Source of the DNA: a virus | Length of the DNA: 64,000 nucleotides | Reading direction: 5' to 3' (one strand) | UHGV virus genome: UHGV-1350217 | Part shown: positions 1-64,000 of the stretch, piece after piece | Position numbering within the stretch: the first letter of the stretch is position 1 | Layout of the letters: each line of letters begins with the position of its first letter | Notes under the pieces: model-generated | The model's database searches: none | Seen by the model: only the letters and a program-made list of their open reading frames with translations | Told to the model about the DNA's origin: nothing | Translations under genes and position numbers: made by a program

Positions 1-3000
1 TGCTGATAAACTTCTAAAAGATGAAAGTAAAGAGTTTAGAAGTAAGTTTGTAAATGCTTCAGAGCAGCTTCCTGAGTTTAAGACTATAGATGATTTATTA
101 AAGACTATTGAAACTTATCAAGAGCATAGTATCTATGCTAAAGCACCTGCTTATAGTACAGATAAAGAGATAGAAGCTAAACCTAAGACAAAGTCTGAAA
201 CAGAGAAACTACTAGAGAATATAGATAAGAGTTTAAAGAATCTAGCTAATAGAGATAATGCTATTAATGAACATACTGGAGTAGAAACAAATCAGTCAGA
301 TGAATTAGATAATGTTTCAGATGAGTTAAAGACTGATATAACTACTCTAGGTAGTCCAGATACTGCACTGAACGATAGTGATGAAGCTATTAATAAACTT
401 ACTAATCAACTAGAGCTTTTATACTCTGCTAGTGATAATACATCAGTAGCTGATGCTATGATAGAGCTAGGTAGAGAATACAATATATCTAATGCTCAAA
501 TAGATTTTAGTGTTAGTATGATTAATAATCTCATAGCTCCTAAAGACCAAGCTAGATTCTTTAAAGACTCTTTGAAAGTCTATATCTCTAGAGATACTAA
601 TAGTAATACCTCAGGAACATTTACATTTAGTCCTACTAAAGACTTAGATAGAATATATCTAAATGCAGGTAAGACTAGTGCAGCAGGTAATAACATAGTA
701 GAGACCTATCTACACGAGTTAATTCACTCTATTATAGAACACGCTATAGCTGAGGGTAATCAAGAAGTAATCTCTGCTATGAATAAAGTAGAACAGCTAA
801 GAGATACTTTCTTAAAGACTCTAAAAACTAATGATGATAAATTGCTATTAGCCAATGAGTTAGGAATACAGGGTTCTAATGAGTTTAAACTAGAAGTAAT
901 CCAAAAGTCTTATATAGATTATATGTCTGAGAATCCTAATGAGTTTATAACTATAGGATTATCTAACCCTACTATCTTTGCTAGATTAAAAGCTATAGAA
1001 GTATCTAAACCTTATGAAGGTATTATAGATACTATTATTCAAGCTGTAAAGAATGCTCTAGATGCTATTATGAATAGACCTCTAGATATATCTCAAACAT
1101 CTAATACAGCTGCTGAAGCTTTGTATAAACTAACACAAACTATAGCTAAGAATAATAATAAGCTATATGATGAATATGTTAGTGCTAGAAAGAAAACTCT
1201 ACTTCAAAAAGTAGCCAATACTCTAGATAAAGCTAGCAATACTATGGTATCTAGATGGATAGATGATAAGAAAATTAAGCTATTAACTTCTAATAAACCT
1301 GATAGTACTAGCAGATTTAAGAACTTAATAGCACTATGTAAGATACTACCATTTGCATTGAAAAATCCAGTCTTAGGCAAACAAGCTAGAGAATATATGG
1401 GTAATGCCTTTAATCTAGGTTGGGGAGGATTTATATCTCAGACATTCTCATCTATGACTTCGCTAGATGATTATAAAAGAACAGTCAATACTCTAATAGC
1501 TGAAAGTCAAGATAACGATAAGAACAGAATATTGACTTTTAATGCTTTGCAAAAACAGCTAAGAGATGCCTTTAAGACTGAAATATCAGATGAAAATGCA
1601 AAATCCTTAGGTAGAGTAATTCTAACTAATGACTTAATCTCTGTATTCCCTACAGCTAAAGAGTTCTATACTGAATACTCTAGCCTAGATAAAAAAGAAA
1701 GAGACGCTAAGATAGATAAAGCTATCAAAGATGCTTCTATTAGACTAAGAGAGTTTGCTTATTTCAAGAATGGCAAATATAATCTAGGGTTACATCAGTT
1801 CTATGTTAATCAAGCTACTCTACTAGGAGAGTCTATAGCTACAGGAGAATATAACTATAATCAAGCTACTAATGCTCAGAATATAGCTCTAGGACTTAAC
1901 TATGAAGGAGTTAAGAGAGGAACAGCATTAGAGCCTAGAGATATTAATAGAGATGAGTTAATACACCTAATAGATAAAATAGCTACTCTAGAAGCTTTAA
2001 AACATACAGATGAGAATGCTATAGCAGACTTTAACTATCTATATAATACAGAGAAAGATGGAGTAGAGAATATCTTTACTATGCAGAAAGTCTATGCTAA
2101 AGGCTTAGAGGATGAACTAAAACTTCAAAACTCTGATGTATCTAATAAAATCAAAGGCTATACTAGAAGCATATCTAATAGAGCTGTAGACGTACAGATA
2201 GCTAGACTAATAGATAGAGATGATATGCTAAAGCAAGGCTATGAATTAGTCCAAGAATATAACGGCATAGGAGTAGATAGAGATGCTCTAGGTATGTATG
2301 TATCTAGAACTAACGTTAAACCTGCATATAATAGAGGTGTCTTTAGAACTACAGGAGGTTCTAATAGAGGTCTTACTATTACCTCTAGTGTAGATTATCT
2401 ACTAGAAGGTAAATCCCTAGAGGAAAAGAATGCTTATATTCAGAATATACTACGTAGAATACAACAAGGAAAGATAAATGGTAAGTTTGTACCTATCTAT
2501 GATGCTAGAGGTGTAGTAATAGATTATCGTATGATGATACCTCAAGCTATCAAAGAACAGCTAGAGTTTACAGATACTAATGTATTTAATGTAATTCCTA
2601 CTATGGTAGCTAGATATTGGGATAAGACAGAGAGTGATGCTTTCAATAAAAAAGCCTTGAATGAGTTACACTCAATGTGGCTAAAAGATAGAAACACTAA
2701 TAACTTCATCTATCTAGGTGCTGAGGATATGGAAATTATGAATAGAGCTAGTAATGGTAAATCTAGAATTAAACCTAAAGATTTAGAAAAACTCAAGGAA
2801 TCTTGGGATTTACTACCTCAAAGTACTAAAGCTTATATCTATGAGCAATTCCCTGATATGCATCACGGTATCTATATCAGAGAGGATTTACTAGCTTCTA
2901 TAGCAGGAAGTAGAGATATTAGACTTACAGAAAGTGAAGCATTTAAACGTATAGTTCCAGATAAAGCTAATCAGCATTTAGCTAACCTAGTAGAGTTTGG

Positions 3001-3928
3001 TATTATCAAACTAGCTAAGCAAATAAGACAGAAACTAGTAGTTAAAAATCCTGAAGTTATCCTAGGTAATATTGCTTCTAATCAGTATATTCTAACGTCT
3101 TATGGTATAACTCCTATGCAGACAGCTAAATACTTTGGAGAAGGAATAGACCTAATAGATAAATACAATAGAGATAATGAAGCTTATCTATCAGCCTATA
3201 GAGCTTATAAGTTAAGCAATAATGACCTTAGATTAAAGAGAAAGTATGAAATATATCTCAAAGCTATGCAAGATAACCCTATCTATGAGTTTGATAAGAG
3301 AGGTTTAATATCAGATATTACTGATGAATTACCATCTCAAAATGATATGGATAAAGACTTCATAGATAAAAAACTTACAGAGACTGCTGATAAGCTAGCT
3401 ATACCTCAAGCATTTAGAGATGCCTTTGATGTATTAATGGTCAATGAAGGAACTCAATTACATAAAGCTTATAGTACAGTAATCAAATACTCTGACTTAC
3501 TAGCTAGATATTCTCTATGGAAGCATCTAATGGCTAATAAAGGTAAAGATGATAGTACTATCAAGACAGATACAGAAATATGGGATTTATTAGATAAGGC
3601 ATTTATTAACTACTCTACACAAGACCATCCATATCTAAAATATGCTAATGATATAGGTTTTGCTAGATTTACCAAATATTGGATTAGAGCTCAGAACTAT
3701 ATAGCTAATGGTCTGCTGGGTACCAAACTAGCTACTACTATGCTATCACTAGCTACACAAGCTATGACAGGTATAAAGATAGAAAGCCCGTTGAATGTGA
3801 TATTAGGCAAAAAGCTATTTGGCTATCATACATTTACATTGCCATTAGTAGATGATATAGCTGAGATAGTAGCTGACCCTATTAATCTAGACAATCCATT
3901 GCAGTATATTAATAGCTACTTTAAATAA
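1..3928 (+). CDS. 3' portion (at least 1309 codons) of a giant ORF that is open from window position 2 and stops at 3926-3928. Probably the C-terminal part of a giant virion protein, an N4-like virion RNA polymerase (vRNAP) candidate.
   Basis: Frame 2 reads without stops from nt 2 to the listed ORF start at 458 and on to TAA at 3928. Codon usage matches the rest of the phage. Same strand and frame continuity with the giant ORF at 57261-64000. The gene upstream of it is convergent. No catalytic motif recognised in this part. Confidence 0.5.
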   Translation, partial: ADKLLKDESKEFRSKFVNASEQLPEFKTIDDLLKTIETYQEHSIYAKAPAYSTDKEIEAKPKTKSETEKLLENIDKSLKNLANRDNAINEHTGVETNQSDELDNVSDELKTDITTLGSPDTALNDSDEAINKLTNQLELLYSASDNTSVADAMIELGREYNISNAQIDFSVSMINNLIAPKDQARFFKDSLKVYISRDTNSNTSGTFTFSPTKDLDRIYLNAGKTSAAGNNIVETYLHELIHSIIEHAIAEGNQEVISAMNKVEQLRDTFLKTLKTNDDKLLLANELGIQGSNEFKLEVIQKSYIDYMSENPNEFITIGLSNPTIFARLKAIEVSKPYEGIIDTIIQAVKNALDAIMNRPLDISQTSNTAAEALYKLTQTIAKNNNKLYDEYVSARKKTLLQKVANTLDKASNTMVSRWIDDKKIKLLTSNKPDSTSRFKNLIALCKILPFALKNPVLGKQAREYMGNAFNLGWGGFISQTFSSMTSLDDYKRTVNTLIAESQDNDKNRILTFNALQKQLRDAFKTEISDENAKSLGRVILTNDLISVFPTAKEFYTEYSSLDKKERDAKIDKAIKDASIRLREFAYFKNGKYNLGLHQFYVNQATLLGESIATGEYNYNQATNAQNIALGLNYEGVKRGTALEPRDINRDELIHLIDKIATLEALKHTDENAIADFNYLYNTEKDGVENIFTMQKVYAKGLEDELKLQNSDVSNKIKGYTRSISNRAVDVQIARLIDRDDMLKQGYELVQEYNGIGVDRDALGMYVSRTNVKPAYNRGVFRTTGGSNRGLTITSSVDYLLEGKSLEEKNAYIQNILRRIQQGKINGKFVPIYDARGVVIDYRMMIPQAIKEQLEFTDTNVFNVIPTMVARYWDKTESDAFNKKALNELHSMWLKDRNTNNFIYLGAEDMEIMNRASNGKSRIKPKDLEKLKESWDLLPQSTKAYIYEQFPDMHHGIYIREDLLASIAGSRDIRLTESEAFKRIVPDKANQHLANLVEFGIIKLAKQIRQKLVVKNPEVILGNIASNQYILTSYGITPMQTAKYFGEGIDLIDKYNRDNEAYLSAYRAYKLSNNDLRLKRKYEIYLKAMQDNPIYEFDKRGLISDITDELPSQNDMDKDFIDKKLTETADKLAIPQAFRDAFDVLMVNEGTQLHKAYSTVIKYSDLLARYSLWKHLMANKGKDDSTIKTDTEIWDLLDKAFINYSTQDHPYLKYANDIGFARFTKYWIRAQNYIANGLLGTKLATTMLSLATQAMTGIKIESPLNVILGKKLFGYHTFTLPLVDDIAEIVADPINLDNPLQYINSYFK

Positions 3929-32319: not shown

Positions 32320-32410
32320 ATCTATGGACAAACTTACAAATTGTTTATCTATGGATGGAATACACTAATAGAATTAAAATAAGTACTAGTAATCCATCAC
32401 GTCCATAGAT
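32320..32410. repeat. Repeated motif ATCTATGGA(C/T) at about 32320-32329 and 32347-32359, plus the inverted copy TCCATCACGTCCATAGAT at about 32393-32410, in the early intergenic leader
   Basis: Read directly from the sequence. A third copy lies at 32784-32807 (next feature). Confidence 0.5.
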
Positions 32411-32492
32411 TACTAGCAGAGCTACAACTTGAGTTTACGCAGGTGAGTAGTACCTCGAATGAGTTTAATGACATCTTAGGTCGATAGCTTAG

Positions 32493-32744: not shown

Positions 32745-32783
32745 AAGATTCTCCTTAGAAAAGATTTTCACCTTCCCAGTCTA

Positions 32784-32807
32784 TCTATGGATGAAATTGT
32801 CATAGAT
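32784..32807. promoter_or_regulatory. Motif ATCTATGGATGA plus the inverted CATAGAT about 40-60 nt upstream of the first early gene. Candidate early promoter or operator element.
   Basis: Same 10-12 nt motif as at 32320 and 32347, with an inverted-repeat partner forming a potential 7-bp stem hairpin. Confidence 0.35.
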
Positions 32808-32846
32808 GTAGTATTTGAATGATAAAAATCAAATAGAAAAAATTAT

Positions 32847-50139: not shown

Positions 50140-53100
50140 ATGGGATTCTTTAAAAAGAAAAAGACCTATGATGAATATATTCATCAATTAATGTATGGAC
50201 CTACTGAATGGTATACCAAAAGAGATTATGGTAAATCAGGTAAGAAGTTCTATGCAGGTACTATACAAGCTAATAGAAAGCTGATATATGATAAATCAGC
50301 TAAGATGTCTAATTATGATGCTATTAAAGATTTAATTACTACTTATAATACATATCACGAAATGCCTTTTGTTAGAAAGAAACTTCAAGGATGGAATAAG
50401 ACTTTAGTTACTAAAAAGACAGAATTACAATTAGATAAATTACTAGCTACTATACCTGATTTTAAAAGCCTGATAAGCTATGAGCAAGGAACTGAATATA
50501 AGCTCTTTCCTGAGTATATGCTAAAGCAGATATTCCCTAGCTATGATTATGATACTAGTACTTTTACCTTTAATAATGACTTATATACATATAAATATGA
50601 TGCTGATATAAATACTGCTGCTATAATTGCAGATAGTTATATAAAACCATCTAATACTAAAGAGTTTACTTCTACAGTAAAATGCTATGTAGATAATGCT
50701 ATTACTAGAGATAAAGTAATTACACTAGCTATAGACCCTAGTATAACTACTAATGTCAAAGAAATTAAAGTAAGTTATTATATCTATGACCCAGATAAGA
50801 AATTAAAAGAGACTATATTAACTGATTGTCCTATAGATGGTAAAGTATCTATTTCACTAGATAAAACCTTAGTAGAGGATACTATTATATCTATAGAGGT
50901 TACTGAAGTAATTACTGACCCTATAACTCATCAAGAAACTAAGAATATCTATACAGATACTTCACTTCCTATAGTATTTAGATATCCTATTCCATCTAGA
51001 CGTAATTATTCAGACTTTAACTTCTATTTTAATCCAAGTAGTAAATTAGATGAAGTAGTAAAAAAAGCTGTATATGATAACTTCAAAGCTACTTTTCATA
51101 TAGACCCTTATGATAATACTAATAATGTCATAGAGGAGGAAAGAACTAGTATAGAAATACAACCTAATGACCCTAAGTATGAAACTAGACCTAATGAAGT
51201 AAAAGTAGAAATAGTATCTAAGTTTACTTGGAAAGACCATACTAAAACAGTAACTCAAACTACTAAAGTATGGAATCCTGTAAAGAAAAAATATGAGGAT
51301 AAGACTATATCTTATCAAGAGAATATCATTGAAGTTTTAATTACTGATATGTGGGTAGATAAAAGACTATTTCTACTAGACTCTATAACTGATAAATTAG
51401 AATGGTACTTTATAGCTTATTACAACACTTCTGGTAAACGTTCTATTTATACCCTTAGGGATATATCCTCTGTCAATGCAAATGGCTCTAAACCTACTGT
51501 ATTGACTGCTGCTGTTAGAGTATTAGCAAATGGTGGATTAGCTGGAGGTAAAAGAGGAGATATAAATCTACAAAAGACTAAACGTAAAAATAAGAACTAT
51601 CGTAGAATACCTAAAAAGTATAAGCCATTATTATATGAAGCTCTTAGAGATAATAAAGATAGTGATATAAAAGATGCTTGGATAACTTCTTGTATAAACT
51701 TTCAACCTTATTTGAAAGCTTCTACTAGAGTAGATAAGTATTATATTAAGTATCTACAGACTATGTTTAAGTTCTTTGATAAAGAGTTTAGTTGCTTTAA
51801 CAAGTCTTTTAAGAATAACTCAGGACAAGTATATTACTTATCAGGAAACTATGCAGATAGGTGGGAAGTTAGTCCTTGTGCTTATAGACTTAGAGGAGTA
51901 AAGAAAATTATATCTAGGAATACTCTACCATCTAGATTATGCTTTTTAGGAGAGGAGTTAGATAATCCTAATCACCTATGCCTTTATTGTTTTGTTCCTA
52001 ATTATATAGAGGATGATGGAACTAGTCAAACTAGAAAGTTTAATACTATTACTCAATATATTCTAGATTTAACTTACTGGTATGGAAATTATAATTTCAA
52101 TGATGGCAAATCTACAGATTGGACTATTAGAATAGCTAAGTATTCTAAGATACCTAAAATCATATGGGGTAGTTCAGGATATAAGAGACATTTTAGGAGA
52201 CATAGTGATGACGATGATGATGACTATTCAGTAACCCCTAGTATAAATCTAGGAGAATATAAAGAATCTCCTAAGACACCTCTTAGTGGCAATGCTACAT
52301 ATAATCAAGCTATTACTATTCCTGCTGGAAATAATTATAAAAGAGAAGTTTTAGAATATATGTGGGATAAGAATAATAGCTTTGTAACAGGACATTATAC
52401 AGGTTCTTATGCTTATGATAGTGGAGGCAATAGAGATAAAACTTTTCATATGCCTTATCCTATATTAGCTAGCTCAGTAAATAACTTCGAGTCTTATATA
52501 AATAATCAAACTGCTAGATGTACTGAAATGTTTGGTAACAATTCTTTAACTTTCAAATGGCTATCTAGTGGAGTAGAGCTATCAGAAGCTGATAAAGCTA
52601 ATATTATTGCATTTACTAAAACTAGAGTTGGTATTAAAGATAGAAAAGGAAATACTATTATCCCTATGAGTGATGTAAACATCAGATATAGAGAAAAAGT
52701 CATTAGAAAGACTAGATATATAGACATAACTAGTGATACTACTGGAGTAATGAATTATGGAGATAAAAAAGAAGGTCTAATAGCAAATACTTTACCTAAA
52801 AACTATACTGAGTCTACATATTGGGTTAGTTATTTTAATAATACTAATATATTTGAACTCTATAATGGACAACCTGCTTTACTAGAATATATGGGGTCTA
52901 ATGGACACAACCAAAAGACTATATTCTTTACTAGTCATAATTTTGGAGGAAATGTAGAAACTAGATTTAGTTATATAGAGATAATTAAGATAGATTATGT
53001 CTATAAGTATAGAGTAAACGGAGTAGTTATTGAAGGTAGTGATGAGAAATGGCTTAACTATAACTCTTGGGAGTTTAAAGGTATAGTAGAACCTAGTTTT

Positions 53101-53826
53101 ACTCCTCCTATGCCTTGGAGAATGTGGGTTAGAGTTCCATTATATATTCAAGAAGCAGTACTAACTAGTATATTATTCTTAGGATTTAGAATAGAGTTTC
53201 AAGTTAAAAAAGCTACTACTTTATTTAAAGTCATAGGTATAGTAGTTACTGTAGTAGGTATAGTCTTAATAGTAGTTGGAGCATTAACTTCTTGGTCAGG
53301 TTTTGGTATACCTCTAATGACTTGGGGTAAAGTAGTATTAGGTATAGGTCTCTCAATGCTTGGAGCAGCTTATGGTAAAGCTTTTCTATCATATCTAGGT
53401 ATGGCTTTCTCATTATGGGGAGGCTATGGTATGATACAAGCAACAGCAGCAGCTAATATAGCAGCTGGAGCTAGTGCAGGATTTGAAACAGCTAAGAGTG
53501 CTTTATCTATGGCTTCATTAGTATATTCTACAGCTAATAATGCTTATAAACTAGCTACTCAAAATAAAGCTCAAGCTAAGCTAGAAAGACAACAGAAAGA
53601 GCAAGAGGAAAAAGATAGATTAAAGAATGACAGAGAGTTTCAAGAAAGTTTAGATGAAGTAAATCTAGCAGACTATGACATACCTAAGAGTATTGACGAA
53701 CAGCTAGATTTATATTACTTCATAGCTTATGGTGGTCTAATGTATGACTATAATACGGTAGAGCAAATAGCATATCACTCAGCTGAACAGCCTATAATGA
53801 GTGAGACATTTGACAGATTTAAATAA
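50140..53826 (+). CDS. Large virion protein (1228 aa) with a poly-Asp run and a C-terminal multi-helix hydrophobic region plus coiled coil. Internal/ejection protein candidate.
   Basis: RRHSDDDDDDYS. C-terminal FKVIGIVVTVVGIVLIVVGALTSW...GIGLSMLGAAYGKAFLSYLGMAFSLWGGYGMIQATAAANIAAGA, then a Q/K/E-rich coiled coil. Confidence 0.5.
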   Translation: MGFFKKKKTYDEYIHQLMYGPTEWYTKRDYGKSGKKFYAGTIQANRKLIYDKSAKMSNYDAIKDLITTYNTYHEMPFVRKKLQGWNKTLVTKKTELQLDKLLATIPDFKSLISYEQGTEYKLFPEYMLKQIFPSYDYDTSTFTFNNDLYTYKYDADINTAAIIADSYIKPSNTKEFTSTVKCYVDNAITRDKVITLAIDPSITTNVKEIKVSYYIYDPDKKLKETILTDCPIDGKVSISLDKTLVEDTIISIEVTEVITDPITHQETKNIYTDTSLPIVFRYPIPSRRNYSDFNFYFNPSSKLDEVVKKAVYDNFKATFHIDPYDNTNNVIEEERTSIEIQPNDPKYETRPNEVKVEIVSKFTWKDHTKTVTQTTKVWNPVKKKYEDKTISYQENIIEVLITDMWVDKRLFLLDSITDKLEWYFIAYYNTSGKRSIYTLRDISSVNANGSKPTVLTAAVRVLANGGLAGGKRGDINLQKTKRKNKNYRRIPKKYKPLLYEALRDNKDSDIKDAWITSCINFQPYLKASTRVDKYYIKYLQTMFKFFDKEFSCFNKSFKNNSGQVYYLSGNYADRWEVSPCAYRLRGVKKIISRNTLPSRLCFLGEELDNPNHLCLYCFVPNYIEDDGTSQTRKFNTITQYILDLTYWYGNYNFNDGKSTDWTIRIAKYSKIPKIIWGSSGYKRHFRRHSDDDDDDYSVTPSINLGEYKESPKTPLSGNATYNQAITIPAGNNYKREVLEYMWDKNNSFVTGHYTGSYAYDSGGNRDKTFHMPYPILASSVNNFESYINNQTARCTEMFGNNSLTFKWLSSGVELSEADKANIIAFTKTRVGIKDRKGNTIIPMSDVNIRYREKVIRKTRYIDITSDTTGVMNYGDKKEGLIANTLPKNYTESTYWVSYFNNTNIFELYNGQPALLEYMGSNGHNQKTIFFTSHNFGGNVETRFSYIEIIKIDYVYKYRVNGVVIEGSDEKWLNYNSWEFKGIVEPSFTPPMPWRMWVRVPLYIQEAVLTSILFLGFRIEFQVKKATTLFKVIGIVVTVVGIVLIVVGALTSWSGFGIPLMTWGKVVLGIGLSMLGAAYGKAFLSYLGMAFSLWGGYGMIQATAAANIAAGASAGFETAKSALSMASLVYSTANNAYKLATQNKAQAKLERQQKEQEEKDRLKNDREFQESLDEVNLADYDIPKSIDEQLDLYYFIAYGGLMYDYNTVEQIAYHSAEQPIMSETFDRFK

Positions 53827-53837: not shown

Positions 53838-54329
53838 ATGTTTTGGGATAGCTTTTTAAGTGGATTACAATCAGTTGGTAATTCATTATTTGGTGCAGGA
53901 ACTTTCGGTAATGCAGCTAATCAAGTAGGAACTACAGCAGCTAATCAAGTTAATAATCAAGCTCTGCAAGGTTTATTAAACTTAGGTTCTACAGCAGCAG
54001 GAACTGCTAATAATGCTGGTCTAGCTGCTAGTCTAGCACAAGCTGCTCAAGCTGGTAATCAAGTAGCTACTAATGGAACTAATGTAGCTCAAGGATTAAC
54101 ACAGCAAGCTACACAACCTAGTGGGGGAGGATTAATGAATAAAGTCTTAGCTCCTACTATGGATATGTATACAGCTTGGAATGCTTATAAGCAAAATATG
54201 AAACAAGCTAAGTATGGTCTAGCTGAAAGACAGAGAGAAGATACCTTCAAATGGCAAGAAAGAGATAGGTCAGCTAGAAATAGAGCTAATACTACAGCTA
54301 ATTACTTTACCAATGGACAAGTAATCTAA
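53838..54329 (+). CDS. Small Gly/Ala/Asn/Gln-rich virion protein (about 16 kDa)
   Basis: Low-complexity AANQV/NNAGLAASLAQAAQAGNQ repeats. Size and position match the small virion protein gp52 of N4-like phages (from memory). Confidence 0.45.
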   Translation: MFWDSFLSGLQSVGNSLFGAGTFGNAANQVGTTAANQVNNQALQGLLNLGSTAAGTANNAGLAASLAQAAQAGNQVATNGTNVAQGLTQQATQPSGGGLMNKVLAPTMDMYTAWNAYKQNMKQAKYGLAERQREDTFKWQERDRSARNRANTTANYFTNGQVI

Positions 54330-54339
54330 GGAGTCTAAT

Positions 54340-57189
54340 ATGGCAGATTTAAATATAGGAGGAACTAGTGCTTTTCTAGGGCCTGCTGTTAATACTCAAA
54401 TAAATCAGACTGATGTCAAAGGAACAGATTTTACTAGGACTATGCTACAGGCATTACAAGGTGCAGCTATAGCAGATGAAAATACTAGAAAGAATGACTT
54501 AGCTTCTGCTGAATTATTAGCAGCTAACACTGAAGCTAGTGAAAAAGCATATCAGTATGGACAAAATCTAGCAGCAGACCAATTAGTGAAAGCTATAGGA
54601 TTAGAGAATGCTGCATTGAATCCTTTTATTGGAACATATGCTAGAGCTAAACTAGATGATACTACTAAAAAGTTTCAAGAGGTTAGAAATACTAATAGAG
54701 ATTTCAATGAAATAGCTGATTATGCTAAAACATATGGACATACTCCAGCTATAGATGCTATTCTTATTAATCGAGAAAATGCTAAAAGAGGTCTAGCAGA
54801 AAGAGATATAGAATTAGCTAGACTAAGAGGTGATTCTAATGGTAATCCTACAACAGCTACTAGTACTAGTCTTACAGTCAAAGGAGGTTTACCTGATAAT
54901 TTAAGAGTTCCTTCTTATATTAATTCAACTGATGGTAGTATTGACTTTAATAAAATTAATTCAATAATGTCAGGTAATAACTCAGCTAATCGGCAAATGA
55001 ATAGTGCCCTAGCTCCTACAGGTAATGATACTGCTACACAGAATGCTTCAGCTAGCCCTAGACTTAATGGTATTAGTGCAGCAGGTAGAGCAGCTGATGG
55101 ATTAAGTAGAATACAAACTACTACTTCTACAGGTAAGTGTGCTACTTCAGTAAGAGAGAATCTAGAAAGAGCTGGATATAGACTTCCTACGGGTAAAGAT
55201 AGAACTAGTGCTTATATGTATGCTGATAATGGTCTATTAGAGGATATGGGATTTCAACGTATAGATAATGCTTATTCACAGAATCCTCTTAAAGGAGATA
55301 TAGTAGTTTTTGGTAAAACTGATAAACATCCTGATGGACATATAGCTATGTTTGATGGTAATAACTGGGTTAGTGATTTTAGACAACGAAGCATTAATCC
55401 ATATATAGATAAAAAGTCAGCAGGACAGATGTCATATTTCAGAGACCCTAGAGCAATAGATGATAATCCTGATTTTGCTAAGTTTCAACAACAAGCTATG
55501 AATCCTATCAATCAATTTAAACAAGCTCTAGGATTAAATCCAGAGCCTACAGCAAGTGAGAGGGCTACAGATAGTACTAACATACCTTCTTACTCTCAGA
55601 ATGGTTTAGACGCTAAGGAAATGGCTTCTAAAGCACTATCTACAAATCAGTCTAAAGCTGTTAGTTTTAATAATTCTTTAGGAGTAGATACAGAAAAGAA
55701 TCCTGAAACTGGTTTACCTATGAATGATGTAGCTGGTAATCAACTAAGTAATGCTATTCAACAGACTAGTAAACTTAAAGGACAGAGTCTTTTTATTTCT
55801 GAGGATGATAAATCTCAAGATAATAAAATTATGGTAAATCTAGGAGATAAGATAGGTGTGTTTGATAATACTCCTGATGGACTAAATCAAGCTGAGCAAA
55901 TGAAAGCTAATGTAGGTATAGGTAGACCATCTATGATAGAAGCTATTACTACTAAAGCTCAAATGTCCTATGGTAAAGAACCTATGCAGACTTATGAGGA
56001 TTATGTTAATAAAAATATAGATAATAATCCTGCATTATATGGAAGCAATATACACGTATCTAAAGCTATTACAGATAAAGGTAATCTAGATAGTATAGCT
56101 AGTATAACTGGCTTACCTATAGTTCAATATGATGATAATGGAAACCCTATCGAAGATACTATAGCTTATCCTCCTAATATGTCTAATAGACTAGCTAATA
56201 TAGGACATACTGATACAGCTAGTGTAGAAAGAGCTCAGAAAGCTGCAGATGACTTAAAAGAGTTCTATCAACAATCAGGACAAGACTATACTATAGGAAA
56301 AAATCATCCAAATATTAGAATAAACAATGATGGTAGCTTAAAAGAAGGAAATCCTAATAATATGACTAAAGAGGAAAGAAAATATAATAAGATGGTTCAA
56401 ACTGAGGATTTTCTAACTGACCCTGCTATATCTGGTGCTAATAAGATAATTCAAACTACTAAAGATATGCCGATTATAAAAGATAAAGGGGATAATACTG
56501 AGAAATATACCTCTTTAGTTCAAAAGGACTTAGCTGAAGGCAATAATGAAAAGATAATTCTAGCTGGTATTACTCTGCATACTCTAGGTATAGAGGATGC
56601 TGATGGTATGAATGCTGATGCTATGGATATGCTATATAGAGTAATGACTGAAGATAAAACACCTACTGAAGCTCTAGCTTCTGGTAAGCTAGGTATTTTT
56701 AAAGATGCTAAAGCTCAAGAGTTAGTTAAGCTATTACCTAAAGCTTATAAAGAAATAGCAGCTTATGCAGCTGATAGTAGTGGTTTTCTATTTAGTAAAA
56801 AAGGCTCTAGAAGTGAAGGTATGATACCTATATTCTTAGACGATAAAGGTAATTTTAGAGTTAATAGATTTAAGATGGATACACCCGAGAATAGAAAGTT
56901 TGCTGAGGATAATGGAGTACCTGTAGCTAATTCATCTAAGCATTTGGCTTTAGTTCCTAATCAACTAGGTTATAAATTAGAGAGTTTTCTTAGAGGAATA
57001 TCTGACAAATATGCTAAAGAAGCTTTTGCTAAATCTACTCATCAAAGAAAATATATTTCAGACGAAACAAGAGATAGAATGAAACAAGATGATGCTCAAT
57101 TCTTACTAGATAATAATGGAGATACTTACGATTGGTTAGCTACAACAGGAATGAGTAAAGGGGAATACTTAGAGAATATGCAACGCTAG
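54340..57189 (+). CDS. Virion-associated peptidoglycan hydrolase with a CHAP/NlpC-P60-like cysteine peptidase domain
   Basis: GKCATSVRENLERAGYRLP ... GDIVVFGKTDKHPDGHIAMFDGNNWVSDF: catalytic Cys and His arrangement typical of CHAP domains (about nt 55100-55400). 949 aa. Confidence 0.6.
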   Translation: MADLNIGGTSAFLGPAVNTQINQTDVKGTDFTRTMLQALQGAAIADENTRKNDLASAELLAANTEASEKAYQYGQNLAADQLVKAIGLENAALNPFIGTYARAKLDDTTKKFQEVRNTNRDFNEIADYAKTYGHTPAIDAILINRENAKRGLAERDIELARLRGDSNGNPTTATSTSLTVKGGLPDNLRVPSYINSTDGSIDFNKINSIMSGNNSANRQMNSALAPTGNDTATQNASASPRLNGISAAGRAADGLSRIQTTTSTGKCATSVRENLERAGYRLPTGKDRTSAYMYADNGLLEDMGFQRIDNAYSQNPLKGDIVVFGKTDKHPDGHIAMFDGNNWVSDFRQRSINPYIDKKSAGQMSYFRDPRAIDDNPDFAKFQQQAMNPINQFKQALGLNPEPTASERATDSTNIPSYSQNGLDAKEMASKALSTNQSKAVSFNNSLGVDTEKNPETGLPMNDVAGNQLSNAIQQTSKLKGQSLFISEDDKSQDNKIMVNLGDKIGVFDNTPDGLNQAEQMKANVGIGRPSMIEAITTKAQMSYGKEPMQTYEDYVNKNIDNNPALYGSNIHVSKAITDKGNLDSIASITGLPIVQYDDNGNPIEDTIAYPPNMSNRLANIGHTDTASVERAQKAADDLKEFYQQSGQDYTIGKNHPNIRINNDGSLKEGNPNNMTKEERKYNKMVQTEDFLTDPAISGANKIIQTTKDMPIIKDKGDNTEKYTSLVQKDLAEGNNEKIILAGITLHTLGIEDADGMNADAMDMLYRVMTEDKTPTEALASGKLGIFKDAKAQELVKLLPKAYKEIAAYAADSSGFLFSKKGSRSEGMIPIFLDDKGNFRVNRFKMDTPENRKFAEDNGVPVANSSKHLALVPNQLGYKLESFLRGISDKYAKEAFAKSTHQRKYISDETRDRMKQDDAQFLLDNNGDTYDWLATTGMSKGEYLENMQR

Positions 57190-57260
57190 TTGTGTATTAA
57201 ATATATTCTTATTCTTTCACTATAATACTGCTAAACTTAAACTAATTTAAGGATAGCAGT

Positions 57261-60200
57261 ATGTATAATGAAAATGATGAAAATCAACAAGAATATAATA
57301 AGCCTACTTCTAAAGATAAATCTAGCAGTATCTCTTTGATGAATACTCTCTCTGATGCTTTTAAGCAAAATGGAGGGGTACCTCAAGAGCTAGAGAACTC
57401 TACAGTTAGAAACTTCTTTAATACTAATTATGCTCCTATATTCAAGCCAGCTAATCAAGTTAAAGCTGAAAGAGCTACAGAAGTTGTTAAAGATATATTA
57501 CAACGTCAAGGATTTCCTTCTACTCCAGAGGATGATGCAGCAGCTAGAATAGCAGCAGATACCACATATGCTCCTCAATATCAACAACTAGAACTTAATG
57601 AGCAAAGATTAGATTTAATTTCTCAAAAGAATAAGCAAGATTTAGACAATGCAGAGCATATGAATAAACTAAAGCTACTAGATGCTCTAAGTCCTCAAGC
57701 ATTAGCTGATATAGGTTATGGAAGTAAAGGTAGCTACTCTATGTCTCCAGAGGAAAGAGCAGCATATGTTAGAAAAATGACAGCTGACCCTTATAAACAA
57801 GCTATGCAACTAGCTGAAATAAAAGCTACAGATGATAGACTTAAAGCAGCTAGAGGTCTAACTATTATCAATGACTTAAATGATAGGTTTAAAATAGAAC
57901 AACAAAGGGAAGCTCTCAACAGAGATAAAGAGAATCTTACTACTGATTTAGCTTCATTAGCTTCATATAATAACTATATGAAAGAGATTAATCCTGCTTT
58001 CACTTCTACTACCTTTGAGACAGGTAATCCTCTAGAAAAAAATCCTGATTATTCTATTACTGCTAATATTGCAGACCAATGGGGAGAGTTCTATAGAGAT
58101 ACTTTAGGTGTAGGACAACTAGCTAGTGAAGGTGCTAGTGATTTAGCTAAGCTAGCTGTTAGAAAAGCTAAGAACTGGAATAAATCTGTATCTGATATAG
58201 CTACAGAAGTTTTACAAGAGGATTATGAGCTAAATAAACAGAGACAAGCAGGTAAATCTACAGGTCATCCTATAGATGATTTTCTAGCTGGAGCTATTAG
58301 AGGTTCAGGTAAAGCAGCTAAAGACAGAAATGCAGTTAATAGATTTACTATTGATTTAATGAAAGCTGATTATGATGCTTCTGATGGAGCATTATCTACT
58401 GTTAAAAATATAGGAGGAGATTTACTAGGAGCTTCAGGACAATTTATAGCTGGTTCAACTCCTGAAGTACTTAGTGCTTTGGTTCCTGGAGGACTAGTAA
58501 ATAAAGCTACAGAGAAAGCTGCTGCTAAATATGGTGAAAAAGTAGCTATGGAAGCAGCTGGTAAAGATTTAATTAATGCTACTAGAGCTACTACAGAAGC
58601 TCTTGATAAACTTAAATCTACAGCTCCTAAAGCTATGACTGACAAAGTAATTGCTGAAGTTCCTAAGAGAAATGAACTCTTTAAAGCTATGCAAGATAAG
58701 TTTAATCAAGACTTTAGAGCTATTAAAAAGTCTACAGATTTAACTAGAAAAGAGAAACTAGAGAAACTTCAAGCTTTAAGACGTCAAAGAAATGTAGAAC
58801 TTACAAGTACAGAGAATAATAATCTAATCAAAGCCTATGCTAAAGCTACAGATGCTGAGAAAGCAAGAATGCTATCAGCTTATAAAGAGTCTTTAAAAGA
58901 GAATGGCTTTAAAGAAGCTAATGCAGCAGCATTTAGAAGTGAATATGCAGCTAATAAAGCTTTACATACTAATGCTATATCTAAAGTAGAGGAAGCTAAT
59001 AAAAAACTAGCTGATACTATGGAGAAATATCATATAGACCCTACTACTAGAACTATCTCTGATAAAGGTAAAGAACTATTAGGTAAAGAGTTTGCAGCAG
59101 AGTTTCAAGCTAATAGTAAAAGATATAGTCCATTAGCTAATGCCTTTAGAACTCTTACCCCTACTGCTGCAGTAGTCGCTGAAAGAAATGCTAGACAAGC
59201 TATGGCTAATAGATTAGGTATAGATGAAAGAGACTTAGTTCAAGTAGTAGATAGTGGAGACTTTATCTCTAATATGCCACTAGCATATGTCTATTCAGCT
59301 CTAAATACACTAGAGGCTACTAACCTACTAGAAGGAGCTTTTAAAGGAGCAGGACTTAAAGATATATTTAGTACTACTAAGAAGTTCCTTACAGGTGTAG
59401 ACGACACTACTATAGCTGCTACTAAGCAAGCTACTAAAGAAGCAGCTTCTAGGACTATGAAAGAAAGAGCATCTGAACTAGCTACTAGACTCAAAGATAA
59501 GCCATTAAAAGAAGTTAGAGATATAACTACTAAAATGTTTGGTCTAGCTTCTAAGACTTTAAAAAGTACTGCTAAAGTAGCAGGTAAAAGAGGTCTATAT
59601 GGTTTTGCTAATGAAGGAACTGCTGAGTTCTTACAAGAGTATTCAGAGCAATTACAGCAAAATGGCTTTAATCTACAAGAGATATTAAATCCTCAAACAC
59701 TAGAACAAGCTAAAGAAGCAGGATTAATAGGAGGTCTAACTGGAGGAACTACAGGTACTCTAAGTACTGGAAGTCATCTAGTTAGAAATGTCTATGATAA
59801 AGGTATTAAACCTCTAGCTACTTCTCTTAAAGATAAATGGCTAGAGCATAAAGAAGCTAAAGCAGATGAAAAGACTGAAGCTACTAGAACTACAACTAAC
59901 TATGAAGCTTCACATAACAATGATGGTTCTGTTATAGCTAATACTACTAGTCCAGCTAAAGTAATTGAGGATAGTCTAAATACTAATCTAAATAATAATA
60001 CTATTAAGAAAATAGCTTCAGAAGCTCAAATAAGACAAGCTAAGAAAAACCAAGATTTCTTTGATAATGATAAACCTAAGACTAAAGCAGATATAGATAG
60101 ACATACTGATGACTTAATGCAAGAGTATAAATATGCTCCAGAGAAAAGACCAGAAGTAAGAGATGCTGTAGTAAATACTGCTGTATCTAGAAATGCTGTA

Positions 60201-63200
60201 GATTATACTGCTGATGAATTGAAAGATTTAGGAGTTAATGATGAAACTATAGCTAGATATGGTAATATCAATCTACAATTACAAGATACTCTTACTGATA
60301 ATTATAAAGTTTCAGATGTAACTAAAGATTGGAATATACCTACTGAGAAACTTACAGAGATACAAGACTTTATACCTAGTCTAGATAAATTAGATAAAGA
60401 TACTTTCAAAGACCTTACTAATGAACAGAAAGCCTTAGTATTAGATGTATTAAATAATAAAGCTGTAAAAGTTAAACCTGAGAATATCACAGGTAGAGTA
60501 TATACTCCATCATTCTCTACTGATGAGAATCCTATAAAACTTAATGTAGAGCATAAACTTACAGATACTGGAGATTTAGACTTATCAGACTTTGCTGAAA
60601 GAGCTAAGAACTTAAATAAAGCCTTTAATTATAATGCTGATACAAATAAGAAAATTACTAGTACTGATGCCTATTATGGATTAAATGAGTTAAGCTTCTT
60701 ACTTACTAATGCTAATAGTAATAATATAGCTACTAAAGAGGAGGATATCACTTCTGAAAGTAATAACTCACTTCTTAAGTCTTTACATAATATAGGTACA
60801 GCTATAGGTAAAGGAGAAGTAGATAAGCTAGAAGGTAATGATAGACAAGTCTTAGAAGGTTTAAAACAGTTAATTAAAGATGGAGCTATCAAGAATAAAG
60901 AGAATCAAGTAGTTAGTCTAGGTAGTGCAGAGAAACTACTAGATGAAGTAGATAAATATGCTAAAGTAGAACTAGAAAAAACTACTCCTGTTACTGATGA
61001 ATTGTCTACTAATCCTAAGTTTAAAGACCAAGGTTCTCAAGCTATTAATAAAGTCTTTCATTCACAGAATGACTCTTTAGATACAAAAACTTCTGAGTTT
61101 GTTATGACTGCTCTAGGTGTAGCTGATATAGCTCAAGCTAGTAGTGTTAATATCAAAGTTATGAGAAAGAATCAAGCTATTAATATGGAGGATGTATCCT
61201 CTGATATAGCTTCTACTGCTGCTAGAATAGTCAATAAGTTAAATGCTGTTATGCACGATATTATGCTTACTAGAGCTGAGAAAGCTAAGGCTTATAGATA
61301 TCTAATGAGTCAGTTAAAAGAACTTACTGTTAGAGTTAATTCTAAAGTTTCAGCTATTAATTCAGTTCGTAATAAAACAGGTCTATTAGATGACTTAAGA
61401 AAAGACCTAAAAAGAAAGCTAGAAAGCCAATCAGAAAATAAGACTGATGAGCAAATATCCAAAAGTGTAGAGGATATAATTAATGACCAATATATTCTTG
61501 GTACTGAAGGTTTCTCAGCTGTAGTAATAGAGATACCATATAAAAATCCTAAAGGAACTAAATTACTTAATGATCTTAGTCCTGCGGAGTTAAGTAAAAA
61601 TCTAGATTTAAAATTAGTACCTAAAAAGTCTTTCTCATTTAATAAAAGAGAACAAGTTACTACTGAGGATATAAATGCTTATAATAGCAAGTATAGTAAT
61701 GGAGAACAGTATTATCTAATAGCTAAAATAGATAAGAATAATGGAACTATTAGCTTTGACCAATCTGAGGATAACTCTTTAGCTTTACTACAGAATGCTA
61801 TTATTAATGACTCTAATCTATTATCTAAGGCTTTAGAGCTATTCACTGGAGTTAGGGAAGCTTTTAGTAATACTACTCTAGGTACTTTACTAGACCCTAA
61901 AGCTATAGATGAAGGGTATTTATTTAATCTACTAAGACAATATGATACAGCTTCTATTAAGACAGATGAACAGATAGAAGTTTTAAAAAATAACTATAAG
62001 AAATTACTAGAAAGTGATACAGCTACTCAAGAGGAAAAAGATAATGCTCTAAAAGATTTGTCTTTATATGTTGTACCTATTAAAGATAATCAAGGTAATA
62101 TAGTAAAAGATCAATATAGACGAATTACTAAAGCTGATGTTAATAAGAACATTCAAGCCTTTATGAATAACTCTATTCAAAGTATGGCTTTATCTCAAAA
62201 GAGAATGTTAGCATTAAGGACTATATTAAAGAATCCTGTTCCAGCAGTAGCTGATAGATTTAAATCTCTTATTCCTGAATTAGCTGATATGCAAGTACTA
62301 GATAGCCCTTCTATTATAGTTAAATTAAGAGATATCTATGAATGGTATAAAAGAGACTTTGAAATAGCTAAAGCTCAAATGGCTTATTTACTATCAGACA
62401 ATCCTGATGAGATAGCTAGACTAATGCTAGCTATGAAATATATAGAGCAAGAGACTGTAAGAAAAGAACTTGGTAGATTAAGCCAAAGTGAGTTTAATAA
62501 AGTTCGTATGCAGGGATACTCTCAATGGTCTGATAAGTTTAAAGTAATGCTTAGAAACTTCTATGGCTTTAATAAGAGCATAGAATATACAGAACAGCAA
62601 TTTAATTCTAAACTAGAGGAAGTAAATAAAACAAGAGAAGCTAGAGATTTGCCTAAAATAACTCTAGAGGAAATAGAGACTATGACTAAGCCTCTATTAA
62701 ATGATTTCTCCCCAGTTAGCATTATAAGCAATATGCAATCTCTTATGTCTATAGCAGCTTCTAAAGAGTTAGCTAAAGGATTTAAACTAAGTAATAACTC
62801 ACTTATGGATTTACTAGATGACTCTAAGTTAGACCTAAACAAATCAGATACTCTAGACTTTGATAGAAATCTCATAGGCTATGCTTATGATTTTAACCCT
62901 CTAGAAGCTAAAGGCTTTAAGTATTTTACTAATGGAAAGAATACTTCTATAGATTCTCTTAAACTAGGAGAATTGACATATAGTAATTTTAAAGATAGAT
63001 TGAATGCTTCCCTTATTAATAATGTTAAAAACTTTGAAAAGATGCCTAAAGGTCTATTTAATGATGTCTTTATATTCAATAAGGATGGCTCTATAAATAG
63101 TGTTAAAGAACCTTATACTAGAGCTATGTTTATGAGTCTAATGGAAACTATGACTAAAGGTGTTAATCCATCTCCTATTACTCTAGGTTCAGCTGAGACA

Positions 63201-64000
63201 CTAGCTTCTAAAATAGCTAAGTATAAAGCAAACTCTACTGTTTCAGCTGCATATCAAGCTCTAAGAACTACTGATAATATCATTAATATCTTAGGACTTA
63301 CTCCTAATAATCATAGGACTATTAGTGAACTTACAGCTATTAGAAGTCAATTAGCTATGTTTAATGAGTCTCTTATGGAAGGAATGCTATCTGGTCTAAA
63401 TAAATTAGGTATAGAATGGGATGGAGGTAAAAGTGTCTATAAATTAAATGAAAAAGCACGTAAAGATACAGAAGCTCAAGTAGATAAGCTTATAAGAGAG
63501 CAAGTATTTGAAAGTAAAGTACAAGGAGTAAATTACTTCTCTGATGCTATCTTAAAGACTCAGTTCAATATAAATCACGCTCCATTAAAAGAATATGCTG
63601 CTAGAGACCAGCAAGAAGCTATAGTAGCTAATGCTTTAGCGCCTAGATACTTTGATAAAGATAGAATGGAACAATCTATAAAAATCTGGAAAGACCCTAA
63701 TCTATTCTTTAACGAATTAAAACAAGACTTAGGTGATGACTTAATAGCTATAGGTCAAGATTATAATGATATAAAAGAGAAATTAGACCAATTTAGAGAA
63801 TTAGCAGGTATAACTGATAAGAACTGGACTAATAAAGTAATTGTACTAATACCTAAAAGAGAGTTCTCTACAGATAATCCTGCTCTAGCTCTATACAAAG
63901 ATGAGGTATTACCTAAAATACTCAATACTATTGAGGATTACAGACAAGTATTAGTAAAGTTTAATTCAGATAGTGTTCAAGAGAACTTACCTGAATATAC
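57261..64000 (+). CDS. 5' portion (2246 codons, still open at the window end) of a giant ORF. Giant virion protein, N4-like vRNAP candidate.
   Basis: ATG at 57261 with an AAGGA Shine-Dalgarno. Translated by hand to the window end without stops. Not in the ORF track because it has no stop. Its position after the virion-protein run mirrors the N4 gp51-gp50 order. A K..K x7 YGF segment at about 59560-59610 loosely resembles RNAP motif B but is not conclusive. Confidence 0.6.
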   Translation, partial: MYNENDENQQEYNKPTSKDKSSSISLMNTLSDAFKQNGGVPQELENSTVRNFFNTNYAPIFKPANQVKAERATEVVKDILQRQGFPSTPEDDAAARIAADTTYAPQYQQLELNEQRLDLISQKNKQDLDNAEHMNKLKLLDALSPQALADIGYGSKGSYSMSPEERAAYVRKMTADPYKQAMQLAEIKATDDRLKAARGLTIINDLNDRFKIEQQREALNRDKENLTTDLASLASYNNYMKEINPAFTSTTFETGNPLEKNPDYSITANIADQWGEFYRDTLGVGQLASEGASDLAKLAVRKAKNWNKSVSDIATEVLQEDYELNKQRQAGKSTGHPIDDFLAGAIRGSGKAAKDRNAVNRFTIDLMKADYDASDGALSTVKNIGGDLLGASGQFIAGSTPEVLSALVPGGLVNKATEKAAAKYGEKVAMEAAGKDLINATRATTEALDKLKSTAPKAMTDKVIAEVPKRNELFKAMQDKFNQDFRAIKKSTDLTRKEKLEKLQALRRQRNVELTSTENNNLIKAYAKATDAEKARMLSAYKESLKENGFKEANAAAFRSEYAANKALHTNAISKVEEANKKLADTMEKYHIDPTTRTISDKGKELLGKEFAAEFQANSKRYSPLANAFRTLTPTAAVVAERNARQAMANRLGIDERDLVQVVDSGDFISNMPLAYVYSALNTLEATNLLEGAFKGAGLKDIFSTTKKFLTGVDDTTIAATKQATKEAASRTMKERASELATRLKDKPLKEVRDITTKMFGLASKTLKSTAKVAGKRGLYGFANEGTAEFLQEYSEQLQQNGFNLQEILNPQTLEQAKEAGLIGGLTGGTTGTLSTGSHLVRNVYDKGIKPLATSLKDKWLEHKEAKADEKTEATRTTTNYEASHNNDGSVIANTTSPAKVIEDSLNTNLNNNTIKKIASEAQIRQAKKNQDFFDNDKPKTKADIDRHTDDLMQEYKYAPEKRPEVRDAVVNTAVSRNAVDYTADELKDLGVNDETIARYGNINLQLQDTLTDNYKVSDVTKDWNIPTEKLTEIQDFIPSLDKLDKDTFKDLTNEQKALVLDVLNNKAVKVKPENITGRVYTPSFSTDENPIKLNVEHKLTDTGDLDLSDFAERAKNLNKAFNYNADTNKKITSTDAYYGLNELSFLLTNANSNNIATKEEDITSESNNSLLKSLHNIGTAIGKGEVDKLEGNDRQVLEGLKQLIKDGAIKNKENQVVSLGSAEKLLDEVDKYAKVELEKTTPVTDELSTNPKFKDQGSQAINKVFHSQNDSLDTKTSEFVMTALGVADIAQASSVNIKVMRKNQAINMEDVSSDIASTAARIVNKLNAVMHDIMLTRAEKAKAYRYLMSQLKELTVRVNSKVSAINSVRNKTGLLDDLRKDLKRKLESQSENKTDEQISKSVEDIINDQYILGTEGFSAVVIEIPYKNPKGTKLLNDLSPAELSKNLDLKLVPKKSFSFNKREQVTTEDINAYNSKYSNGEQYYLIAKIDKNNGTISFDQSEDNSLALLQNAIINDSNLLSKALELFTGVREAFSNTTLGTLLDPKAIDEGYLFNLLRQYDTASIKTDEQIEVLKNNYKKLLESDTATQEEKDNALKDLSLYVVPIKDNQGNIVKDQYRRITKADVNKNIQAFMNNSIQSMALSQKRMLALRTILKNPVPAVADRFKSLIPELADMQVLDSPSIIVKLRDIYEWYKRDFEIAKAQMAYLLSDNPDEIARLMLAMKYIEQETVRKELGRLSQSEFNKVRMQGYSQWSDKFKVMLRNFYGFNKSIEYTEQQFNSKLEEVNKTREARDLPKITLEEIETMTKPLLNDFSPVSIISNMQSLMSIAASKELAKGFKLSNNSLMDLLDDSKLDLNKSDTLDFDRNLIGYAYDFNPLEAKGFKYFTNGKNTSIDSLKLGELTYSNFKDRLNASLINNVKNFEKMPKGLFNDVFIFNKDGSINSVKEPYTRAMFMSLMETMTKGVNPSPITLGSAETLASKIAKYKANSTVSAAYQALRTTDNIINILGLTPNNHRTISELTAIRSQLAMFNESLMEGMLSGLNKLGIEWDGGKSVYKLNEKARKDTEAQVDKLIREQVFESKVQGVNYFSDAILKTQFNINHAPLKEYAARDQQEAIVANALAPRYFDKDRMEQSIKIWKDPNLFFNELKQDLGDDLIAIGQDYNDIKEKLDQFRELAGITDKNWTNKVIVLIPKREFSTDNPALALYKDEVLPKILNTIEDYRQVLVKFNSDSVQENLPEY

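Follow-up and report, generated by a model that had tools for sequence, protein, structure and literature searches.

Edge reading frames and the C-terminal domain

The stretch of DNA analysed here, 64,000 nt (31.6% G+C) of the virus genome UHGV-1350217, is referred to over its whole length as the window. At each of its edges lies one piece of a giant open reading frame (ORF), and a preliminary description of the sequence had proposed that the two pieces are one gene for a virion RNA polymerase (vRNAP) like gp50 of phage N4, read directly across a junction of position 64000 with position 1. On the plus strand, an ATG at 57261 opens a frame that is stop-free for 2,246 codons to 63998, with the bases AC left over at the edge; the nearest in-frame stop 5′ of this ATG ends at 57245. 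At the left edge, frame 2 is open from nt 2 for 1,308 codons and closes with a TAA stop at 3926–3928. With a stop frequency of ~0.077 per codon (~7.7% of random codons), as estimated from the base composition, 2,246 codons without a stop cannot arise by chance, and ORFs as long as those at the edges are therefore real genes. Joining 64000 to 1 creates an ACT codon and keeps the frame through 3,555 residues. Both ORFs and the continuity of their frames were thus reproduced as described before, with a trivial difference in the count (earlier, ~3,556).

The predicted features of the gene within the window are listed below; A3 denotes a multiple alignment of 33 long homologues and N4 gp50 (34 sequences), and residues of the right-hand (N-terminal) and left-hand (C-terminal) pieces are numbered within each piece.

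57250..57253, plus strand: AGGA ribosome-binding site, read from the sequence, 7 nt 5′ of the start codon
57261..64000, plus strand: beginning of the vRNAP gene, with codons 1–2246 complete and two bases of codon 2247; cut by the window edge
57261..62111, plus strand: N-terminal domain (NTD; ~aa 1–1617), equivalent of the N4 gp50 NTD by mapping in A3; boundary approximate
59178..60380, plus strand: conserved NTD core, ~aa 640–1040, containing GLYGFANEGTAEFLQEY...GLIGGLTGGTTG, by phmmer
62112..64000, plus strand: probable ‘wrist’ subdomain, the N-terminal part of the polymerase (Pol) domain (~aa 1618–2246), by collinearity in A3
1..3928, plus strand: 3′ end of the vRNAP gene, 1,308 codons with a closing TAA, preceded by the final base of a Tyr codon
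713..727, plus strand: HELIH (HExxH, zincin-like) of subdomain C1 of the C-terminal domain (CTD), by sequence position
995..3766, plus strand: CTD core (C-terminal piece aa 332–1255), homologous to the N4 gp50 CTD

The C-terminal piece carries the clearest relationship to known proteins. It matched the profile phrog_2206, ‘virion RNA polymerase’, with E 3.1e-103 (aa 332–1255 on profile positions 2444–3363 of 3406), and a hidden Markov model (HMM) of 27 classical vRNAPs with E 3e-164 (aa 15–1272); the proteins in this model are of 2,851–3,910 aa, and none over 4,100 aa was taken in. Blastp aligned it to residues 2854–3479 of N4 gp50 (E 3e-16), and tblastn found it in 440 of 50,697 phage records, the matches listed being 21–23% identical and annotated as virion RNAP or N4 gp50-like. 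In pairwise phmmer comparisons of the giant protein with the vRNAPs of N4 and PhiImVa-1, the match was confined to the CTD. A role in encapsidation is known for the N4 gp50 CTD from the older literature. The HExxH motif is present in all 34 of the aligned vRNAPs, ~1,010–1,320 residues before the C-terminus, and in N4 it reads HELVH at 2228; its apparent absence from N4 in one alignment was a MAFFT misalignment and was discarded. The motif had previously been reported for N4 (PMC13434306), and the N4 gp50 CTD is reported to autoinhibit the polymerase (PMC13434306; PMC13492108). The piece is homologous to the gp50 CTD, in which a C1 subdomain with HExxH is joined by a large helical C2. Taken together with the Pol motifs and the gene context set out below, the homology of the CTD places the giant protein, as judged from sequence, in the N4 gp50 (Schitoviridae) vRNAP family, and the earlier designation as an N4-like virion RNA polymerase candidate is borne out, as regards the family, by PHROG 2206 (3e-103) and the classical-vRNAP HMM (3e-164).

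The C-terminal piece was also used as the query of an exhaustive HMMER search of 1.84 billion representative proteins, in which the best 150 of 1,405 matches were inspected. About 100 of these 150 are stand-alone proteins of 1,200–1,500 aa. For P0005 (1,355 aa; L011 2–10099, a contig of JGI 3300042098), which is one of them, the first base follows immediately on an ORF of ≥2,009 aa. Two adjacent genes for the vRNAP, or one gene with a read-through stop, therefore seem to be present in a sizeable clade.

The gene in relatives from human oral metagenomes

Four relatives from IMG/VR and human oral metagenomes, 91–98% identical to the window over the C-terminal piece, each carry one uninterrupted ORF, so the gene is continuous in these genomes. 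Three of them, the IMG/VR contigs L002 (65,972 bp), L003 (42,959 bp) and L004 (66,396 bp), have ORFs of 4,536–4,548 codons, counted from the first ATG in loci that begin ~119 nt inside the gene, and in the best segment they are 92%, 91% and 96% identical to the C-terminal piece, respectively. The HMMER search returned P0001, a protein of 4,669 aa with 98% identity over the C-terminal query, which is the longest among the best 150 database matches and a third larger than that of N4. Its start is the same as that of the window ORF (MYNENDENQQ...), its end is the same as that of the C-terminal piece (...QYINSYFK), and the N-terminal piece matches its residues 1–2239 (score 3926). The gene for P0001 lies on two contigs from human oral metagenomes, L009 and L010 (66,044 and 65,972 bp), where its neighbours are as in the window: upstream are genes for 365, 400, 132, 246, 1228, 163 and 950 aa, and downstream a convergent HU-like gene is followed by genes for 227, 221, 271, 116, 391 and 735 aa.

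The relatives were aligned across both window edges. From residue 134, the N-terminal piece is 95.7% identical to residues 1–2113 of L004, ending ...ENLPEY, and the C-terminal piece is 96.1% identical to L004 3241–4548. After the last codons of the window, ...ENLPEYT, the relatives continue with VWNTSVNERM... and ~1,120 more codons, until ...EHSY is reached and ADKLLKDESKEF, the start of the window, follows. In the L004 protein, ...FNSDSVQENLPEYT is followed by VWNTSVNERMSVVG..., that is by 1,126 residues ending ...AVIEAFEHSY, and then by ADKLLKDESKEF.... DNA alignments agreed with this: L002, L003 and L004 all continue with TGTATGGAATACTAG... past the last bases of the window, and all carry other sequence ahead of its first bases. 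By DNA and protein alignments, 1,120–1,126 codons (~3.37 kb) lie between the window edges in every relative. Since the missing stretch in L004 is 3,378 nt, a multiple of three, the frames also match when the edges are joined directly; the preliminary description had allowed a 1-in-3 chance that its frame match was a coincidence, and a coincidence it was. Other sequence beyond either end of the window had been named there as the observation that would speak against adjacency, and this is what every relative has.

The part of the earlier proposal that stands is therefore that both pieces belong to one gene, as they do in the relatives; the direct join of 64000 to 1 and the product of ~3,550 aa are refuted there, the relatives running past both edges into the ~1,120–1,126 further codons and the closest full-length relative having 4,669 aa. 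We consider it very probable that the window carries both ends of one N4 gp50-type vRNAP gene, the middle ~1,120 codons (3.4 kb) of which are absent, and evidently the source record is permuted or broken inside the vRNAP gene. The full product would be of 4,669 aa, as in P0001, or of ~4,681 aa by extrapolation from L004, and the gene ~14.0 kb; with the codons between the edges added, the genome is predicted to be ~67.4 kb. At the right edge of the window, ...CCTGAATATAC would be followed by TGTATGGAATACTAG... and an open frame of ~3.37 kb, which would contain IEIDGQSFGP, ISKPILQLFNYGSG and NNFDAITT, and would then pass through ...TA into TGCTGATAAACTTC. More generally, a single gene can supply the open ORFs at both edges of a window though the edges are not adjacent, and frame continuity alone is a 1-in-3 event.

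Exact searches recovered neither the source record nor the junction. The junction 40-mer and both window ends had no exact match in IMG/VR, the right-hand end had none in JGI metagenomes or GTDB genomes, and the joined 3,555-aa protein had none in a collection of 15 billion proteins. A word-index protein search returned no homologue, with an index that does not reach 20–30% identity and evidently lacks the close relatives. A look-alike repeat over the false junction, ‘LPEY-ADKLLK’ / ‘LPEF-IDDLLK’, had been considered as evidence of adjacency and was dropped because the relatives have ...EHSY, not LPEY, before ADKLLK.

Divergence along the giant gene is uneven. The alignable DNA of the N-terminal piece is 87–91% identical to the contig that encodes P0001 (L009), and some stretches are unalignable by blastn; relative to L004, protein identity is ~96% over the same region. 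This pattern suggests mosaic exchange among co-circulating oral strains.

The polymerase domain and the weighing of alternatives

The N4 catalytic residues that have been published, R1421, D1556, K1667, Y1675 and D1948, fall in A3 on R2249, D2476, K2627, Y2635 and D2906 of P0001, the numbering of which is used here. The columns of R2249, D2476 and D2906 are invariant and that of K2627 is nearly so. The motifs aligned in A3, for which the N4 sequences were confirmed in the N4 sequence itself, are:

T/DxxGR: N4 R1421, YNMTRVGRM; P0001 R2249, VWNTSVNERM
Motif A: N4 D1556, VEADGVTNGP; P0001 D2476, IEIDGQSFGP
Motif B: N4 K1667 / Y1675, RGIAKNPLTITIYGSG; P0001 K2627 / Y2635, RSISKPILQLFNYGSG
Motif C: N4 D1948, KIFDGMNIG; P0001 D2906, NNFDAITT

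In the relatives, motif B reads R(K/S)ISKPILQLFNYGSG, with the P0001 residues R2623/K2627/Y2635, and motifs B and C are 271 residues apart, as against 273 in N4. The motif residues are conserved across the proteins of 4,100–4,700 aa that were taken into A3. At the level of motifs, the patterns DGxxxG, Rx3Kx7YG and FD are shared with T7 RNAP and PF00940, DGxxxG being the motif A pattern of T7 RNAP; PF00940 differs in that it has no match to the giant protein and matches a separate 620-aa RNAPII homologue. The N4 mini-vRNAP (998–2103) maps to ~P0001 1611–3094, and the homology thus points to a three-part plan of an NTD at ~1–1610, a Pol domain at ~1611–3094 and a CTD at ~3095–4669.

Because a multiple alignment can force matches, independent HMM and hhalign tests were made. 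The classical-vRNAP HMM matched the missing piece of L004 on its own with E 4.6e-10 (gap residues 384–894) and P0001 2606–4633 with E 1.8e-166. When the missing part of this clade was compared by hhalign with the alignment of classical Pol domains, the probability was 97.3% (E 1.8e-11; template 455–1075 of 1105); NTD and CTD controls gave ≤0.1%. The motif-bearing part of the Pol domain is homologous to that of classical vRNAPs, and a central T7-like Pol domain is present in the full-length relatives. None of the catalytic motifs is inside the window: all map to the ~1,120 absent codons, and the window ends, with ...ENLPEYT, 10 residues short of the invariant Arg of T/DxxGR. The profile search for T7-like motifs that the preliminary description had called for therefore succeeded in the missing piece of the relatives and found none in the window's own sequence, and the motifs had not been recognised by eye because they are located in the missing 3.4 kb.

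Upstream of the motifs, the window's share of the Pol domain matched residues 1447–1969 of P0002, an uncultured homologue, by phmmer (E 4e-17; N-terminal piece 1739–2238), and its residues ~1618–2246 presumably form the subdomain for which the name ‘wrist’ has been used (PMC13492108). The NTD boundary was set where the start of the N4 mini-vRNAP (998) falls in A3, at ~P0001 1611. Searched as a whole, the N-terminal piece (2,246 aa) had no match in Pfam, PHROGs, PDB phmmer or blastn/tblastn of the 50,697 phage records, and its match to the full classical-vRNAP HMM was non-significant (E 0.57). The NTD core is the only part of it that is directly similar in sequence to classical vRNAPs: within the 34-sequence set, phmmer domain E values were 5e-6 to P0033 and P0095 and 1.3e-4 to P0045, and an iterated search widened the match. 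Two residues of this core stand out in A3: E789, nearly invariant and aligned to N4 388, and G824, invariant and aligned to N4 432. The NTD of N4 gp50 binds membranes and is needed for ejection (PMC13434306; PMC13492108).

Several observations weigh against assigning the window to a single, active vRNAP gene of this kind. None of the collections searched contained the source record, and the 3.4-kb gap was therefore filled in from relatives and not read. T/DxxGR reads SVNER rather than TxxGR, with the Arg kept. Neither in the N-terminal piece nor in the missing piece of the relatives was the Pol domain detected by Pfam, PHROGs, PDB phmmer, blastn or tblastn, and a Pol profile of four sequences of the clade, compared with classical vRNAPs, matched N4 only at motif B and non-significantly. 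For the portion of the Pol domain inside the window, the hhalign result was weak (23%, P 9e-4, template 88–444; controls 0.1–0.4%), and an AF2 model of aa 1800–2246 built with four homologues was unusable (mean pLDDT 48, pTM 0.31). Packaging, ejection and the use of hairpin promoters are carried over from N4. On these comparisons the Pol domain of this lineage is recognisable only via its motifs and profile–profile comparison, and since it escapes Pfam, PHROGs, BLAST and PDB searches, surveys of such polymerases with standard libraries miss the lineage.

Three other accounts of the edge ORFs were weighed. If the genome were a circular or permuted molecule of ~64 kb, with 64000 adjoining 1, the vRNAP would have 3,555 aa, close to the 3,500 aa of N4, and the match of the frames over the junction would be accounted for; this is extremely improbable, as four of four relatives have the ~1,120–1,126 extra codons exactly between the edges, the related contigs are of 66.0–66.4 kb, and the joined protein would lack the invariant T/DxxGR Arg and motifs A, B and C. 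That protein is moreover absent from the 15-billion-protein collection and the junction from IMG/VR, and it is very unlikely that the endpoints of a deletion would coincide with the edges of a window of fixed length, 64,000 bases. The edge ORFs might instead be two separate genes, one for NTD and Pol and one for a stand-alone CTD, and not a single polypeptide. The many CTD matches of 1,200–1,500 aa (~100 of the best 150), and the start of P0005 immediately behind an ORF of ≥2,009 aa, are what such an arrangement would look like, but every close relative has one uninterrupted ORF through the region, and the C-terminal piece is open from its very first codon, without start context; we regard two genes as very improbable.

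Loss of polymerase activity is likewise improbable to a high degree, if a little less so. In that case the gene product would be a giant structural or ejection protein in which the NTD and CTD of a vRNAP are preserved, consistent with the altered T/DxxGR motif and with the failure of every standard library to detect any Pol domain along its length. Both catalytic Asp residues, the Arg/Lys/Tyr-Gly of motif B and the T/DxxGR Arg are kept, however, with N4-like spacing; the motif residues are conserved across the 4,100–4,700-aa proteins in the alignment, and the profile–profile comparison to the N4-type Pol domain gave E 1.8e-11. The reading of one vRNAP gene interrupted by the window edges is accordingly the one followed below.

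Relative to N4 gp50, the protein is ~1,170 residues longer by A3 columns: ~+700 in the NTD, +380 in Pol and +180 in the linker and CTD. The ~700 extra N-terminal and ~380 extra Pol residues match no known family. That they add functional modules which enter the cell together with the polymerase, serving for example envelope crossing, anti-defence or altered promoter recognition in a low-G+C host outside the Proteobacteria, is an idea that we hold to be unlikely, if worth naming. Much less likely than this, and extremely so, is that the source genome is a deletion variant without the catalytic core.

Gene neighbourhood, known systems and a proposed order of ejection

Gene order around the giant gene follows that of N4. 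Blastp of the window against N4 proteins gave, in the same order, gp69, gp68, gp66, gp59, gp57, gp56, gp54 and gp50, and then gp37 and gp43 in the convergent orientation, with identities of 45% for the gp68 terminase, 34% for the gp59 portal and 27% for the gp56 capsid protein. The late genes run from portal, gp57-like protein, 400-aa capsid protein and gp54-like protein to proteins of 1,228, 163 and 949 aa and the giant gene, which encodes one giant polypeptide last in the late operon and converges on replication genes, the gp37 helicase and gp43 primase homologues being on the opposite strand and directed towards its end. The gp59-to-gp50 order recognised earlier is thereby confirmed, as is the compact T7-like RNA polymerase at 29531–31393, which matched Pfam RNA_pol (E 2.7e-33) as well as N4 gp15 and gp16. 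The neighbouring genes of interest are:

50140–53826, plus strand: 1,228-aa protein, counterpart of N4 gp53 (tail plug) by position and size only
53838..57189, plus strand: genes at the gp52 and gp51 positions (163 aa; 949 aa), by position and size only
53838–54329, plus strand: 163-aa protein at the position of N4 gp52 (outer-membrane channel), by position and size only
54340–57189, plus strand: 949-aa protein in the place of N4 gp51; CHAP/endolysin-like domain, aa 213–453
29531–31393, minus strand: single-chain RNAPII homologue of 620 aa, with gp15 matched at aa 132–255 and gp16 at aa 267–537
4081–4386, minus strand: HU-like DNA-binding protein (Pfam Bac_DNA_binding, E 2e-12), converging on the end of the giant gene

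The 163-aa and 949-aa proteins had no blastp match to N4 gp51 or gp52, and neither the 1,228-aa nor the 163-aa protein had a Pfam, PHROG or N4 blastp match. The lysin-like domain of the 949-aa protein was recognised by phrog_38472, endolysin (E 8e-15), and by Pfam CHAP at E 0.0027, below the cutoff. According to a 2026 paper on N4, the ejection proteins of N4 are without peptidoglycan hydrolase activity; given the lysin-like domain here, such activity may sit inside the ejection cassette of this phage. The 620-aa ORF is a fused, single-chain version of the heterodimeric middle polymerase of N4. With the lysin-like cassette protein and the single-chain RNAPII, the phage departs slightly from the N4 scheme, which may be of use to specialists.

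The phage is thus predicted to be an uncultured N4-like podophage, with relatives from human oral metagenomes. Its giant protein resembles N4 gp50 (3,500 aa; Schitoviridae) in the predicted plan of NTD, T7-like Pol and CTD, in the HExxH of C1, in the alignment of motifs A, B and C and of the T/DxxGR Arg, and in the placement of its gene after the gp52 and gp51 positions, convergent on replication genes. Besides its length, it differs from N4 gp50 in an identity of ~21% in the best-conserved domain, in a Pol domain without BLAST-level similarity and in T/DxxGR being SVNER; the genome, of 31.6% G+C and with oral relatives, also sets it apart from N4. Other oversized, uncultured vRNAP homologues have the same motifs (P0002, P0004, P0006, P0020, P0073 and P0126; 4,127–4,388 aa); all are shorter than P0001, and P0002 is 37% identical over the CTD. 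P0073, P0126 and P0020 align to classical vRNAPs over most of their length, whereas P0001, P0002, P0004 and P0006 align significantly from motif B on, P0004 also in the NTD (E 7e-13). Pseudomonas phage DEV ejects first a protein that forms a channel in the outer membrane, next one that forms a periplasmic tunnel, and then the vRNAP (PMC11445570; PMC13434306), and the cassette logic of the DEV vRNAP (3,398 aa) with gp71–gp73 is the same; the difference lies in the CHAP/endolysin-like domain of the 949-aa protein at the tunnel position. The system is of a known kind, in a family already established; what is new is a very divergent and oversized (4,669 aa) N4-type vRNAP from uncultured human oral phages, and brief literature searches found no paper on oral N4-like phages or on vRNAPs of this size.

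In N4, the encapsidated vRNAP consists of loosely connected subdomains; once the receptor is bound, the gp53 plug is moved aside, gp52 forms an outer-membrane channel and gp51 a periplasmic tunnel, and gp50 follows, its NTD staying at the membrane while Pol and CTD refold in the cytoplasm, where the CTD keeps Pol inactive until a hairpin promoter binds and early transcripts let RNAPII take over (PMC13434306; PMC13492108). By analogy, copies of the vRNAP would be packed in the capsid of the present phage, and the giant gene and the genes for the 163-aa and 949-aa proteins would form an ejection cassette, with roles as described for N4 (PMC13434306). The vRNAP would be ejected after the gp52-like and gp51-like proteins, its long NTD associating with the membrane and the gp51-like tunnel protein during ejection, and the large helical CTD with its HExxH would autoinhibit Pol. 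The early genes would then be transcribed by the vRNAP, until the fused gp15/gp16-type RNAPII (29531–31393) takes over.

Two sets of repeats were noted. Four of the five exact copies of ATCTATGGA in the window cluster at 32316–32810, the leader region of small leftward early ORFs, where ATCTATGGA and TCCATAGAT occur as inverted repeats. One such repeat, ATCTATGacaatttcatCCATAGAT, is found at ~32806–32782 on the minus strand, a short way 5′ of a ribosome-binding site and ATG. With one mismatch allowed, ATCTATGGA is not enriched across the window (41 observed, 32.5 expected), and the cluster came from a search of 31.3–33.5 kb; the ATCTATGGA/TCCATAGAT repeats are suggestive as candidate hairpin early promoters or operators. 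The other repeat, CCCCTCTAG(31 nt)CTAGAGGGG, lies at 3937–3985 on the plus strand, right after the stop codon of the giant gene and before the convergent HU-like gene, and is possibly a terminator, perhaps a bidirectional one.

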